Sequence record: OZ335962.1
Length of the DNA stretch: 64,000 nucleotides
From: a phage
Direction: 5' to 3' (one strand)
Positions 17 to 50,165 of this stretch are shown here, piece by piece. Under the pieces are notes generated by a model. The model did no database searches and was not told where the DNA came from. It saw only the letters and a list, made by a program, of their open reading frames with translations. The translations under genes and the position numbers were made by a program. The first letter of the stretch is position 1; each line of letters begins with the position of its first letter.

Positions 17-865
17 TTAATCAACTGCTATTGGATGAATAGCATTAAACTTATGAAACGCTTCTGATTTTTCTTTGCGCGAAACACACATGCGAAGAAC
101 CTTTAATGGTTCGTCTTCTTCACCCAACGATTTTCTCTTTTCAATATTCAATGTTTTCCAACGAGCTTGCTCTGGAAACTCTCTATTGATTTGCTCAAGA
201 GCTCTATTATGTTTTGAATTACTACGAATTGAACTGCACCCGCCCGGAGCCTGTGCTTTTCCAGATACAACCAGATATTTGAACAAGGCCAAATGTGGAT
301 AACCTTGATTAATTAAATTGAGAAATGCATACATATCTTCGCATAAATCAATTTTTCCATACCCAATTTGTTCTGTCGTAAGTTTTCCGAGGTCATACCA
401 AGTATTCGTGAATCCATATGAATTTTCACGATAATTACCCCAAGATGAAGTAATTTTAAAAATAGGCAGACGAGCATGACCATGATAATACCCGCAATCC
501 ATGGCATCTTCAACGTATTGAATCAATTCATAGAACTGTTCACGAGTTAATTGATTAATTTTATCTACGCAGCGACGATCATCTTTCTTTCGCATTGAAC
601 TCATACGAATAGTAGTATCATCATCAATCATCCAAATTCGTTGACCTGCATACATATCAGTAATTGCTTTACGAGTACCAGCAATTCCGTTAACATCATC
701 AGGAATAGTTATAATTTTAGCTCTAGACCCGTAAGCGTCATAATAAGCCTTTTCTTCATGTTCACGTACTACAATATGTGGTTCATAATCAGTCGGAAAC
801 ATATCAAGGGCAGAAACTGCCCCTACGCGCTGATAGCTTGGAATTACGAATTGAATCATTTCCAC
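17..865 (-). CDS. GT-A fold glycosyltransferase, probable DNA hydroxymethylcytosine-glucose glycosyltransferase
   Basis: 282-aa ORF with N-terminal VIPSYQR and IDDD (DxD) motifs typical of family-2 glycosyltransferases; occupies the position of T4 beta-gt next to gene 42 but is not the GT-B beta-gt sequence, so possibly the beta-alpha-gt type of T2/T6-like phages (inference). Confidence 0.5.
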   Translation of the reverse strand: MEMIQFVIPSYQRVGAVSALDMFPTDYEPHIVVREHEEKAYYDAYGSRAKIITIPDDVNGIAGTRKAITDMYAGQRIWMIDDDTTIRMSSMRKKDDRRCVDKINQLTREQFYELIQYVEDAMDCGYYHGHARLPIFKITSSWGNYRENSYGFTNTWYDLGKLTTEQIGYGKIDLCEDMYAFLNLINQGYPHLALFKYLVVSGKAQAPGGCSSIRSNSKHNRALEQINREFPEQARWKTLNIEKRKSLGEEDEPLKVLRMCVSRKEKSEAFHKFNAIHPIAVD

Positions 866-12000: not shown

Positions 12001-13201
12001 ATTTTGTAATAATGTCAAACTGTTCTTTAAAGCAGAAGCTTGAATCTTGATGCTGATACAAAAATTCATAAGCTTTTTCGCGTTCACGGTCATAAAGAGC
12101 TCGGTCAGATGACAGTTCTTTAATACGTTCAAATGTTGATTCCATGTCATTTTCATCAAACCAAACGATACCGCTATCATGTGAAATTAACGGAGTATTA
12201 TCAACACGGAATTTTAAATTTTCACCAGTAGATTTCCAAAATACTGGAATTGTTCCACATGCACCAAGCTCGAGATGAGTATATTCTAAAGAACGCTGTA
12301 GATATTTTTTGTCCAACTTACTCAGCTGATAACCAAATCCGGATTTACTCATGCGTTCAAGCATTTCGCTATTTACATAACGGTCAAGAATTTGCGTTGG
12401 CAAATTAGGAGCAATTTTAATTTGGTCTACTTGATGAAGACGATAATACTCATATGGAATTCCTTTTTCTTTAATAGGAATGAACGCTGGAGAACGTTCC
12501 AGACCTTCCATAATAGTACTTAGCCCAGCAGGTTTAAGATGTTTTTCGTGAAAATCAAACATCTGATAAAAACCTTTCCATGTAGTCGTACGACCAATCC
12601 AACGGTTGACATTCATGTTAATTTCAGAAACATCTTTCCAGTAGGTTGATCGAACCTTAGCAATATCCATAGGAGGCTGAAAGTTGTATACAGTCGGTGC
12701 TTCTTCAATATCGTCAAACAGTGAAACAGTTTCTGGATACCATTCTTTCATCAGAACTTTATTAAAATCACCATTATCAGAATGACTAAAAATAACATCA
12801 GCTCGGCGAACAGTTTCTTCTAATCCCAAATTTCGGCGCAAAGAAAGAGAAGAATGGTCATGTTGATAAACTACAACACGAACCGAAGGTTTAATGTTAT
12901 CAATAATTTTTTTATAGTTATTAATAGTGTCTTCTTCGACTGAAGTAGCAGGAACTGAATTGATAATTAGAATATCACAATCATTTACCAGCTTAAGTGT
13001 TTTATCGTATTCTTTTGCCAATAAAACCGGAATTGAAAATGATTTATAATCATGCGCGCAATTACGGGTAAATGATTTATCTTTAGCATAAACCAAAGTT
13101 ACTTCATGACCATTTTTAATAAACCAATCACGTTGCTCAAGAGAAAATTTAGTTACGCCACAACCTTCAAGACCTCGAGCCATAAAAATGCATACTTTCA
13201 T
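11999..13201 (-). CDS. a-gt: DNA alpha-glucosyltransferase
   Basis: 400 aa, closely matches recalled T4 alpha-gt (..CIFMARGLEGCGVTKFSLEQRDWFIKNGHEVTLVYAKDKSF...). Confidence 0.93.
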   Translation of the reverse strand: MKVCIFMARGLEGCGVTKFSLEQRDWFIKNGHEVTLVYAKDKSFTRNCAHDYKSFSIPVLLAKEYDKTLKLVNDCDILIINSVPATSVEEDTINNYKKIIDNIKPSVRVVVYQHDHSSLSLRRNLGLEETVRRADVIFSHSDNGDFNKVLMKEWYPETVSLFDDIEEAPTVYNFQPPMDIAKVRSTYWKDVSEINMNVNRWIGRTTTWKGFYQMFDFHEKHLKPAGLSTIMEGLERSPAFIPIKEKGIPYEYYRLHQVDQIKIAPNLPTQILDRYVNSEMLERMSKSGFGYQLSKLDKKYLQRSLEYTHLELGACGTIPVFWKSTGENLKFRVDNTPLISHDSGIVWFDENDMESTFERIKELSSDRALYDREREKAYEFLYQHQDSSFCFKEQFDIITK

Positions 13202-27405: not shown

Positions 27406-27435
27406 ATAGTACCACAGAGGAACAGTCTTGTAAAC
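27406..27435 (-). promoter_or_regulatory. early-type sigma70 promoter
   Basis: GTTTAC -35, 18 bp, TGGTACTAT; upstream of ORF 26850-27377. Confidence 0.6.
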
Positions 27436-39770: not shown

Positions 39771-40187
39771 TTAAATGTAAATATTTTTGCCGTAGTATTT
39801 ATACCAGTGTGGCTTCATTAAAATTTTTTCATCGAGTCGTTGTTGACTCAATTTAATAGCCGATTTGCATTGGTTATAATCATTTTTCCATTCTGCTGGA
39901 ATATCGCTGATGTCAGGAACTTCAGTATCTTTTATACTAAACCCACGTTTTAAGCATTCCGCTATAATGTCTGATTGACGCTTTCGCAAAAATTCTAACT
40001 TATCATAAAAGAACGTAACATGACCAGAACCTAAAATAAACTCGGAAGATATTTTAAAATCTTTAACCCGCTTACCATTTGCCACATGTTTACGAACTAT
40101 ACCAAAAACACGTGGCAATTCACGGTATTCTGCGATTAAATGTTGATCAGCAAGTTCAGATACTAAAGTCAAATTAATACGAGTCAT
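39771..40187 (-). CDS. denV: endonuclease V (pyrimidine dimer DNA glycosylase)
   Basis: 138 aa, matches recalled T4 endonuclease V ([33 protein letters not shown]..). Confidence 0.93.
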
Positions 40188-44320: not shown

Positions 44321-44350
44321 ATAGTACCATGGAAGAACAGGGATGTAAAC
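44321..44350 (-). promoter_or_regulatory. early-type sigma70 promoter
   Basis: GTTTAC -35, 18 bp, TGGTACTAT; upstream of ORF 44013-44276. Confidence 0.6.
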
Positions 44351-46657: not shown

Positions 46658-47173
46658 TTAAAGCAAATTAAACATTTTAACGGTCGGCAAAACAATTTCT
46701 TCTTCTATATAAGAGTATTTAACACTCTCAACTACACGCAAAAAATCATAATCATAATACTCAGAAGCATTACCTAAAATATTAATAAGTCCTTCAAGCA
46801 CTTTATTACCATTCACAAAAAATAAGTCAAATACACGTTCTTCATCTTCTTCAGATTTATTACCAAGATCAACTTCTATGCGAAAGACCTTTTTAATGAA
46901 TTCTGGATAAAGCTGGTCTGAGAACAGTCCTTCAACCAAGTATTCATAAATAAAAAGAGATTGCTCGCTGAACAAACCATTACCGCAATAGCGCTCAATT
47001 TTAGTACTAGAATATCTGCTTTTAAATTTCTTTAAAAGATACTGAAATTGTAAGATTTCATGCTCTTCTACGCCAAACAGTGTTTTAGTTTTATAGTTGT
47101 CACCATCATTTTCCCAGGTAGTGACATCAATTACGTAGCCCTGCGGAATTGTAGTACCTAAACAAATATTCAT
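46658..47173 (-). CDS. hypothetical protein
   Basis: 171-aa acidic ORF between the ip locus and the tRNA cluster. Confidence 0.5.
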   Translation of the reverse strand: MNICLGTTIPQGYVIDVTTWENDGDNYKTKTLFGVEEHEILQFQYLLKKFKSRYSSTKIERYCGNGLFSEQSLFIYEYLVEGLFSDQLYPEFIKKVFRIEVDLGNKSEEDEERVFDLFFVNGNKVLEGLINILGNASEYYDYDFLRVVESVKYSYIEEEIVLPTVKMFNLL

Positions 47174-47469: not shown

Positions 47470-47868
47470 TCAGCCTTCATCAACAATAGTGTGAGTATTG
47501 GCATTTACGATTTGCCACCAATCAAAGCGATTAGAATCCATCGGTTTGTTTTCATTTTCTTTGATAATGTCACGGAGTTCATCTTCAGAGAATGCTTTAG
47601 CAATTAAATCGGTATACCCACCACGGGGATAATAATTATCACCTGCAAACAAAAGGAAATTTACCTTCCCGGAAGGAACATATGCTTCCTTAGGATACTT
47701 GTTTCCTGCGTGGTCAACCACTTCAATATAACGGTAAGGAATATCGGTTCTTTCAACCCATTGCCATGCCGCTGCAGGGGAATCGAAAGCATCTACACCT
47801 AAACGATTATCTTCATCTTTAGACGGATTATTTTCGTAATCCGCATATACATAATATTCAACGTTCAT
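47470..47868 (-). CDS. hypothetical protein
   Basis: 132-aa ORF. Confidence 0.5.
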   Translation of the reverse strand: MNVEYYVYADYENNPSKDEDNRLGVDAFDSPAAAWQWVERTDIPYRYIEVVDHAGNKYPKEAYVPSGKVNFLLFAGDNYYPRGGYTDLIAKAFSEDELRDIIKENENKPMDSNRFDWWQIVNANTHTIVDEG

Positions 47869-48053
47869 TATTCACCTTTAGAAATTTTATCCATAACAAT
47901 AGCAATTAAACCAATTAAAAATGCTACTACAAGTGAAAAAACATTTTCTGCCGTAGTCAATAATCCGCATATAAATCCAACAAACATTGAAAAACTGAAA
48001 GCGGAAGCAGAAATTGCAATAGCAACATTTCGAATTAATTCACAACGTTTCAT
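47868..48053 (-). CDS. small membrane protein (61 aa)
   Basis: Likely start ATG 48053 (MKRCELIRNVAIAIS...) with GAGGAGA RBS downstream of an early-type promoter; one transmembrane helix. Confidence 0.5.
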   Translation of the reverse strand: MKRCELIRNVAIAISASAFSFSMFVGFICGLLTTAENVFSLVVAFLIGLIAIVMDKISKGE

Positions 48054-48081
48054 TTTATTCTCCTCAGTAGTTGATAGGGTA

Positions 48082-48111
48082 ATAGTATCACTACCCCATC
48101 TAAAAGTAAAT
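48082..48111 (-). promoter_or_regulatory. early-type promoter (weaker -35 ATTTAC)
   Basis: ATTTAC, 18 bp, TGATACTAT; upstream of the 61-aa membrane ORF. Confidence 0.45.
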
Positions 48112-48345
48112 TTATTTTTTACGAAAAATTGATTTATTTTCTGCTGCCCATTTTTCAATAACTGCAGCAGGACCAGTAACAACAATTTTATCACCGTAAT
48201 CTTCTGCGGCGAGTTGACCGAAATTATCTAATGCATCACGAAGAACTCCATGAGGCATTTCACCCATTTTATCTTTCTTGCCGGTGTAAATAAACTCAAC
48301 TTTTACATCAGAAGATTCAGCGATAAATTCTTGATAAGTTTTCAT
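48112..48345 (-). CDS. internal protein (CTS-bearing), ipI-locus gene A
   Basis: About 77 aa from MKTYQEFIAESS (CTS consensus); own early-type promoter upstream; position next to 57B as T4 ipI. Confidence 0.65.
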   Translation of the reverse strand: MKTYQEFIAESSDVKVEFIYTGKKDKMGEMPHGVLRDALDNFGQLAAEDYGDKIVVTGPAAVIEKWAAENKSIFRKK

Positions 48346-48382
48346 TTTAGTTTCCATTCGATTGTTTTGTTTTGATAGGGTA

Positions 48383-48412
48383 ATAGTATCACAACTAAAA
48401 CCGTATGTAAAC
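48383..48412 (-). promoter_or_regulatory. early-type sigma70 promoter of ip gene A
   Basis: GTTTAC -35, 18 bp, TGATACTAT. Confidence 0.6.
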
Positions 48413-48424
48413 AACTTTGTGAAA

Positions 48425-48682
48425 TTATTTTAAATCTTCTAATCGTTTCTTCATCTTAGAACCATTTTTAGCAATTTCTCCTGCATCGGAGCATAATGCT
48501 AAAAGTGCTTTAACTTTCGTTTGGTCTCCTTTAAAAGATGAAGGATCTACTGCAGCAGCAAGTTCTTTAATACGAGAGAAAAGACGCTCAGCTTCAGCTA
48601 AAGCCATTCCAAGCTTTACTTCCATACCGTGGGAAGATTCAGTGATAGTAGTTTTTGCAGCAAACTCTTTGAAAGTTTTCAT
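48425..48682 (-). CDS. internal-protein-like (CTS-like), ipI-locus gene B
   Basis: 85 aa beginning MKTFKEFAAKT; AGGAAA RBS; own early-type promoter upstream. Confidence 0.6.
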   Translation of the reverse strand: MKTFKEFAAKTTITESSHGMEVKLGMALAEAERLFSRIKELAAAVDPSSFKGDQTKVKALLALCSDAGEIAKNGSKMKKRLEDLK

Positions 48683-48712
48683 TTTATTTTCCTAATTAAT
48701 TTTGATGAGGTA

Positions 48713-48742
48713 ATAGTATCACTACCTCATCAGCATGTAAAC
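48713..48742 (-). promoter_or_regulatory. early-type sigma70 promoter of ip gene B
   Basis: GTTTAC -35, 18 bp, TGATACTAT; -10 embedded in inverted repeat GATGAGG...CCTCATC. Confidence 0.6.
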
Positions 48743-48754
48743 AACTTTGTGAAA

Positions 48755-49439
<685 letters not shown>

Positions 49440-49440
<1 letters not shown>

Positions 49441-50165
49441 TATAGTACCTTTAGTGTATTTTTAATTTTAGAAAAAAGTTCTTCAAGAGAACCATCGTTT
49501 GTAATTACTAAATCGCCATCACGAATTGGCAATCCAGCTTCTGTAATATGAGTATCATTGGATTTTTGACCAGGACGAACTACATGAATTACTGTAGCAC
49601 CCATCGCCCTAGCCGCATCCATTTCATGATCTTGACGAGTATCAGGAACGATATAATAATCATAACCTGAGTTAAATTTATCAAGATAATCTAAAGCAAA
49701 TAATTTTACCCAATACATGCGGTCGAAGTTATTAACAATCAAATCCGTACCTAGGGCTTGCATCAGACGACGGATTGACCATTGATCTTCAATATTATTT
49801 ATAACGTCAGCAATCTTGTTAAATGCTACGAAATTAACTGATTCTTTTCCTTCGTCATCAAAAACAAACACACCTTTAATTGGGCTTTTACTATTAAGAT
49901 AGCAAAATGCTTGTTCCATAATCGTAATTACTTCTAATTTAGTCAGATTTAAATTAGTCTCACGATCATAGTCAATTCCTTCAAACTCTCTACGAGTTAA
50001 GCAAGGATAGTCAGTGTTTGCTGCAAATACAGACCATGCATAAGCCAATGCATCCTTAATAGGACCAGCAAGTTGATATTTAACTGCAGAATAATTATTC
50101 ATGATAAAATCTGCAGTAGTATCTTTTCCACTACGCTTTACACCACTTAAAAAGATTAGTTTCAT
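49440..50165 (-). CDS. 1: deoxynucleoside monophosphate kinase
   Basis: 241 aa as in T4 gp1; P-loop GVKRSGKDT. Confidence 0.9.

Follow-up and report, generated by a model that had tools for sequence, protein, structure and literature searches.

The internal proteins (IPs) of T4 enter the prohead by means of an N-terminal capsid-targeting sequence (CTS), are cleaved there and are later injected with the DNA, as shown experimentally for IPI, IPII and IPIII. According to a review of these proteins, the propeptides comprise 10-19 residues; targeting to the capsid depends on residues 4 and 7, processing depends on residues 8 and 10, and L/I-x-E is the motif after which the gp21 protease cuts. The three T4 proteins (Ip1, Ip2 and Ip3) are inhibitors, each of a different GmrSD enzyme, and the discussion of Silas et al. 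2025 proposes that all proteins of the two Ip loci target GmrSD variants. One of these loci lies between 57B and trna.4, where T4 carries ipI, and the other in the gene e / denV region. T-even phages carry a diverse set of at least ten CTS-bearing internal proteins, as Repoila et al. 1994 is cited, and conserved flanks of ~70 bp around the IP genes are attributed to the same source. Here we describe two small open reading frames (ORFs), ORF-A and ORF-B, in 64,000 nucleotides of phage DNA from sequence record OZ335962.1 (the window), at positions 48112-48682. This interval runs exactly from the stop codon of ORF-B to the ATG of ORF-A, both genes being on the minus strand. We conclude that the window very probably derives from a T6-like Tequatrovirus in which two cassettes, each with a ~70-nt promoter-early stem-loop (PeSL) repeat, carry ip5 and ip6 in place of ipI, and that the products would be packaged, cleaved and injected, with Ip6 blocking the restriction system McrBC.

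Ip5, Ip6 and their predicted functions

ORF-A is Ip5. Its product is 99% identical to T6 Ip5, matches bas37_0261 of phage Bas37 at 84 of 85 residues, is 98-99% identical across the T2, T6 and Bas37 proteins and shares 91% of its residues with Ip5 of RB70 (UniProt Q38378). ORF-B is Ip6, with 96% identity to T6 Ip6, 75% to ip6 of VR25 and 75/77 (97%) to bas37_0260, which has the same length and occupies the same locus. ORF-B begins at an upstream TTG in the program-made ORF list; we took the ATG at 48345 instead because a ribosome-binding site precedes it and because the start is annotated so in related phages. RefSeq labels the two ORFs 'internal head protein' and 'internal virion protein', and Pfam holds no family for either.

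CTS-like N-termini had been noticed on both proteins in an original prediction made from the sequence alone, and they withstand closer comparison: both fit the pattern MKT-aromatic-x-E-F. The Ip5 leader, MKTFKEFAAKTTITE, is of the IPI type: translation of the T4 record gives an IPI that starts MKTFKEFTSTTTPVSTITE and shares MKTFKEF...ITE with it. F4 and F7 stand at the targeting positions, and the first L/I-x-E motif (I13-T14-E15) predicts gp21 cleavage after ITE15, leaving a basic mature protein of 70 residues with an isoelectric point (pI) of 9.2. The Ip6 leader, MKTYQEFIAE, is identical to the CTS with which T4 IPII and IPIII start. It has Y4 and F7 for targeting and I8 and E10 for processing, cleavage is predicted after IAE10, and the predicted mature protein is near-neutral (67 residues, pI 6.5). 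In diverged variants of Ip5 and Ip6, the protein sequence of both leader and cleavage motif is conserved. For example, Ip5 variants with leaders of different length all have ITE-SS, and a Mosigvirus homologue with only 47.6% identity has LSE-A at the matching position.

Beyond the leader, the two proteins are unrelated. They align only over their first 12 residues, and even the leaders differ, so the claim that neither is a duplicate of the other is upheld. BLASTP against T4 IPI and IPII likewise finds similarity in the leader only (the first 14-26 residues in the case of IPI), and neither ORF is T4 IPI or a dead fragment. Ip5 thus shares with IPI, the inhibitor of GmrSD-CT596 (mature form IPI*, PDB 2JUB), its locus and leader type, but in sequence the mature domain of IPI is unlike those of both Ip5 and Ip6. 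With IPII and IPIII, which inhibit GmrSD from ECOR21 and ECOR17, the likeness consists of the CTS of ORF-B and of the concept of a subtype-specific anti-restriction protein that is injected. The T4 genes are at the other IP locus, close to gene e, and their mature domains are unrelated to that of ORF-B.

A sequence search of the PDB with either protein returned neither IPI* nor any significant match (best E = 0.65-1.4). From shallow alignments, AlphaFold2 predicts Ip5 as a two-helix hairpin (pLDDT 72), for which BFVD yielded no match with E <= 0.001. Ip6 is predicted as a ferredoxin-like beta-alpha-beta-beta-alpha-beta fold with a low-confidence leader (pLDDT 82.5), and its best structural match in BFVD is VR7 Ip6.

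An exhaustive HMMER search with Ip6 recovered five representatives among 1.84 billion proteins. One of them, P0019 (491 residues; five stretches), consists of repeated NHL-like units and was treated as a spurious or compositional match. Another, P0017, is a protein of 63 residues that is 60% identical to the mature domain of Ip6 and lacks a leader, with in-frame stops just upstream of its ATG. It is encoded at a different locus on metagenomic T4-like contigs (L008 3001-3192, also L009 and L010), between GTTTAC-type promoters and in the neighbourhood of a MotA-like gene and T4-baseplate-like genes. One effector domain therefore appears to exist in two forms, one injected and the other the product of an ordinary early gene.

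The functional evidence for Ip6 comes from Bas37. In the HIDEN-SEQ preprint (10.1101/2025.11.20.689424), deletion of bas37_0260, a gene reported to encode an N-terminal packaging signal, renders the phage specifically sensitive to McrBC of E. coli K-12. Transposon mutants in this gene were depleted ~30-fold on K-12, and the transposon tables list a mean count of 8.4 on K-12 BW25113 versus 227-309 on clinical isolates. The result shows that the targets of internal proteins reach past GmrSD within type IV restriction.

The DNA modification genes of the window fit such a function. The window encodes an alpha-gt, and downstream of gene 42, in the place of T4 beta-gt, a beta-glucosyl-hydroxymethylcytosine-alpha-glucosyltransferase (Table 1); T4 beta-gt itself has no match in the window. 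Judged by this gene complement, glucosylation in the window phage is of the T2/T6 type. With this type, some hydroxymethylcytosine escapes glucosylation and remains accessible to McrBC, which is why an injected McrBC inhibitor would make sense in this phage.

The sole functional pointer that we found for Ip5 is a signal in the supplementary data of the same preprint, which hints at a role on uropathogenic E. coli CFT073. Mutants in bas37_0261 show a log2 fold change (log2FC) of -2.09, a 4-fold depletion, on this strain (Extended Data Table 7; adjusted p reported as 0.00000) and of -0.01, that is, no depletion, on CFE299 and CFE303. Mutants in the 57B orthologue, bas37_0262, have a log2FC of -1.56 on CFT073 (adjusted p 0.003). 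Since ip6 mutants are not depleted on CFT073, the Ip5 signal cannot be due to polarity on ip6. The text of the preprint contains no discussion or follow-up of this signal. That Ip5 is an injected inhibitor of a CFT073 defence system, and that the CTS acts as a portable 'injection tag' gained and lost during cassette shuffling, is a tentative proposal to which we give rather less than even credence.

Taken together, these comparisons suggest the following course of events. Host sigma-70 RNA polymerase would transcribe each gene from its own T4-type early promoter, as the match to the consensus implies. Targeted by their CTS, both proteins would enter the prohead's scaffolding core, where gp21 would remove the leader after IAE10 (Ip6) or ITE15 (Ip5), and the mature proteins of ~7.5 kDa would remain in the head until they are injected along with the DNA. 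Entry, cleavage and injection are expected here by analogy, given motif identity with the T4 proteins. In the new host, Ip6 would block McrBC, as the knockout of the 97%-identical Bas37_0260 indicates, and Ip5 would most likely counter another modification-dependent (type IV) nuclease or other first-response defence. The original prediction of two different injected effectors is supported in that the proteins are unrelated beyond the leader, that they are the known Ip5 and Ip6 and that the Ip6 orthologue is an McrBC inhibitor; packaging and injection are read from the leaders.

Promoter repeats and probable cassette exchange

Table 1. Features of the ip5-ip6 locus and of other genes discussed, with positions in the window
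Feature	Coordinates	Strand	Remarks
Beta-glucosyl-hydroxymethylcytosine-alpha-glucosyltransferase gene	859..17	-	phrog_842, E = 1e-88; Pfam TAGT
alpha-gt	13201..12002	-	91% to T4
Third CTS-bearing gene, 157 aa	39288-39761	-	starts MKTYQEFITEAA...; phrog_3155 'internal virion protein', E = 6e-102
171-aa ORF	46658-47173	-	phrog_2290, function unassigned
trna.4-like gene, 61 aa, hydrophobic	47868..48053	-	phrog_1692; position as T4 trna.4 and T6 Trna.4
PeSL copy 3, before trna.4-like gene	48069..48139	-	repeat family D1; promoter match 48111..48082; stem 48100..48073
ip6 (ORF-B), 77 aa	48112..48345	-	starts MKTYQEFIAESS; phrog_8111, E = 5.1e-52
PeSL copy 2, repeat with ip6 early promoter	48370..48440	-	repeat family D1; promoter match 48412..48383
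ip5 (ORF-A), 85 aa	48425..48682	-	starts MKTFKEFAAKTTITESS; phrog_3499, E = 3.9e-49
PeSL copy 1, ~71-nt repeat with ip5 early promoter	48700..48770	-	repeat family D1; promoter match 48742..48713; -35 GTTTAC 48742..48737; -10 TACTAT 48718..48713; stem 48732..48703
57B, 151 aa, Acb1 anti-CBASS homologue	48755..49210	-	Pfam PF23474 Acb1, E = 2.6e-60; position as T4 57B
57A	49440..49210	-	
gene 1, dNMP kinase	50165..49440	-	

Comparison of a 1.5-kb region around the locus with phage records identifies the source as a T6-like Tequatrovirus. Its identity is 99.4% to Escherichia phages UGKSEcP1 and UGKSEcP2 and 97-99% to many further Tequatrovirus records, and at least 80% of the region is covered in 212 phage records. 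In order of transcription, and all on the minus strand, this part of the window encodes gene 1, 57A, 57B, ORF-A, ORF-B, trna.4-like, trna.3-like and trna.2-like genes, the 171-aa ORF and a tRNA cluster. 57B forms the conserved boundary of the locus on its transcription-upstream side and the trna.4-like gene on the downstream side. The two intact ORFs sit at the coordinates first given for them, in the known variable IP locus. Their description as lying upstream of 57B is correct for plus-strand coordinates only; along the direction of transcription they lie downstream of 57B, where T4 has ipI.

Closely similar arrangements are already on record. Between 57B and trna.4, T6 (GenBank MH550421) has Ip5, annotated as 'replaces ipI', followed by Ip6, and JB75 (MH355584) has the same pair with a promoter annotated before each gene; T2 has Ip5 and Ip7, and T4 has ipI only. 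The gene order 57B / Ip5 / Ip6 / trna.4 is common to T6, Bas37/KarlGJung (MZ501089) and JB75, with 96-99% protein identity. Their intergenic repeats match those of the window, and the JB75 promoters are annotated at the same positions. The differences are confined to a few substitutions: the window Ip5 has A9 in place of T9, and its Ip6 has SS in place of TA at residues 11-12.

Each gene is preceded by a promoter of the GTTTAC type, as had been predicted, and both are perfect matches to GTTTAC-N15-TGATACTAT. A third match, with one mismatch (ATTTAC...TGATACTAT), precedes the trna.4-like gene. With up to two mismatches allowed, the pattern occurs 12 times in the window, always on the minus strand, versus 0.32 expected from shuffles, and is therefore the early-promoter type of this phage rather than a product of chance. 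TTTACA-N17-TACTAT upstream of both genes also fits TTTACW-N17-TAYWAT, the consensus that the PeSL literature gives for promoters of the PST/T4 type.

The three promoter regions are copies of one ~71-nt direct repeat. In copy 1, a 13-bp stem encloses the -10 element (-20.2 kcal/mol, z = -4.1), and in copy 3 a 12-bp stem does so (-16.1 kcal/mol, z = -3.4). In copy 2, the promoter of ORF-B itself, the stem is degenerate and not significant (z = -1.06). Thus, the suggestion that the -10 of each promoter lies within an inverted repeat applies to ORF-A and fails for ORF-B. The -35 element of copy 3 directly adjoins the ip6 stop codon, and the DNA repeat common to the cassettes stops before the ATG.

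The identity of copies 1 and 2 also covers the final four codons of the genes before them, which end ...DDLK in 57B and ...EDLK in ORF-A. The D-L-K-stop of 57B (48755-48766, -) and that of ip5 (48425-48436, -) lie inside the repeat, and the ~35 nt up to and into the -35 are nearly identical between the two copies. ip5 thus appears to end in a copy of the 3' end of 57B, and the sharing looks like the footprint of a PeSL duplication that reached into coding sequence.

Related repeats may be found elsewhere in the window. An identical 30-mer (GTTTACAAGACTGTTCCTCTGTGGTACTAT) is present in two early promoters 25 kb apart (2424-2453 and 27406-27435, -), the similarity of the pair extends through ...TTAC(T/C)CTATCAAC, and 44321-44350 holds a third, related copy. 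The early region thus contains dispersed PeSL-like repeats.

An alignment of T4, T2, T6 and the window suggests how the locus came to vary. All four phages are nearly identical from 57B to the end of PeSL 1. Between PeSL 1 and PeSL 2 the cassette is either ipI or ip5, and between PeSL 2 and PeSL 3 it is ip6 or ip7, or nothing in the case of T4. The junctions of exchange fall inside the repeats, and the PeSL and promoter upstream of T4 ipI match window copy 1 almost base for base. The single PeSL before T4 trna.4 is a hybrid, its 5' half corresponding to window copy 2 and its 3' half to window copy 3. This is the pattern that would be expected if recombination within the shared GTGATACTATTACCCTATCA core had added or removed the second cassette. 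The repeats probably double as recombination homology through which cassettes are swapped, added or removed, and such recombination would give rise to the arrangements of T4 (ipI), T2 (ip5-ip7), and T6 and the window phage (ip5-ip6). An early promoter within an intergenic repeat and exchange junctions inside the repeats are likewise features of the PeSL cassettes described by Arbiol et al. 2010 and Comeau et al. 2014.

Weighing the packaging and effector roles

Several points weigh against the view that Ip5 and Ip6 are packaged and injected effectors carried on PeSL cassettes. McrBC inhibition comes from a preprint on another isolate, to which the window allele is linked by full-length orthology, and the SS versus TA difference at positions 11-12 of Ip6 directly follows the predicted cleavage site. 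The mature form of Ip5 could differ from the prediction, given two more L/I-x-E motifs (E30 and E40) inside the predicted first helix. Our literature searches, in which 'Ip5' and 'Ip6' were swamped by inositol-phosphate papers, found no report of the processed proteins in the mature head or ejected from it. Moreover, the leaderless homologue of the Ip6 core suggests that this domain need not be injected. The stem-loops also depart from those of described PeSL cassettes: none of the three stems is followed by a U-run, a terminator scan found no terminator at the locus, and the stem of copy 2 is degenerate. Only for RB49-type PeSLs have reporter assays and terminator or attenuator activity been reported. 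Finally, the late-promoter motif TATAAATA, which is not enriched in the window (12 occurrences versus 11 expected), is absent directly upstream of ip5 and ip6, the nearest upstream occurrence lying inside gene 1 (49803..49796). As only early-type promoters adjoin the genes, we infer from T4 that enough protein would be present at the time of prohead assembly.

Could Ip5 and Ip6 instead be ordinary early cytoplasmic proteins that are never packaged, with a CTS-like start that persists simply as ~30 initial coding bases carried along by the recombining PeSL cassette? The early-type promoters would suit such proteins, as would the occurrence of leaderless P0017 between early promoters and literature reports that IPIII without its CTS still works if expressed in the host cytoplasm. 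However, the two leaders are not the same and the shared DNA repeat does not extend to the ATG, the ORF-B leader equals the validated CTS of IPIII over 10 residues, including Y4, F7, I8 and E10, and leader and cleavage motif are conserved as protein sequence in diverged variants of both proteins. We consider this explanation very improbable.

A mainly structural role in head assembly or DNA condensation, as has been suggested for IPIII, in place of counter-defence is very improbable. The basic character of mature Ip5 recalls that of T4 IPI* and IPII*. The review of the T4 proteins puts them at ~300 copies per head and notes that they bind DNA at low salt and that IPIII mutants assemble heads more slowly. 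Yet mature Ip6 is near neutral, the phenotype of its orthologue is host-specific and tied to McrBC, and the locus varies among close relatives, unlike what a structural requirement would lead one to expect. In addition, bas37_0260 and bas37_0261 are both classed as 'Non-essential' in the reference library, insertions being tolerated at every TA site (15/15 and 18/18).

That one of the ORFs is a decaying or unexpressed remnant of cassette shuffling is effectively refuted: the stem-loop of ORF-B is indeed degenerate and its Shine-Dalgarno sequence weaker than that of ORF-A (TGGAAAC versus AGGAAAA), but both frames are intact in hundreds of phages, low ratios of nonsynonymous to synonymous polymorphism (pN/pS 0.00-0.10 for ip5 and 0.24-0.26 for ip6) indicate purifying selection, and disruption produces a strong phenotype in the ORF-B orthologue and a significant one, on CFT073, in that of ORF-A.

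Neighbouring genes and the place of the locus

The second IP locus holds a third CTS-bearing gene, immediately downstream of denV (Table 1). The order there is e, denV, IP gene, versus e, ipIII, ipII, denV in T4. Unlike ip5 and ip6, this gene has a TATAAATA late-promoter motif directly upstream (39796-39803, -). Between the trna.2-like gene and the tRNA cluster, the 171-aa ORF has no counterpart in T4 at that place. T2 has an ORF of 171 codons (516 nt), annotated RB32ORF134c, in a similar place, the two being matched by position and length alone. 57B carries the RefSeq label 'RNA ligase', in contrast to its Pfam match to Acb1.

The locus contains nothing new in kind. T6, JB75 and other GenBank records already name Ip5 and Ip6, and the leader, the promoter repeats, the cassette shuffling and the target of Ip6 have likewise all been published or annotated in GenBank. 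Nor is the idea of different injected effectors new: Repoila et al. 1994, as cited, and the discussion of Silas et al. 2025 both contain it. However, with Acb1, Ip5 and Ip6 the locus forms a run of counter-defence genes side by side and is a useful example of a counter-defence hotspot. For work on type IV restriction and phage host range, the CFT073 signal offers a cheap lead on Ip5.

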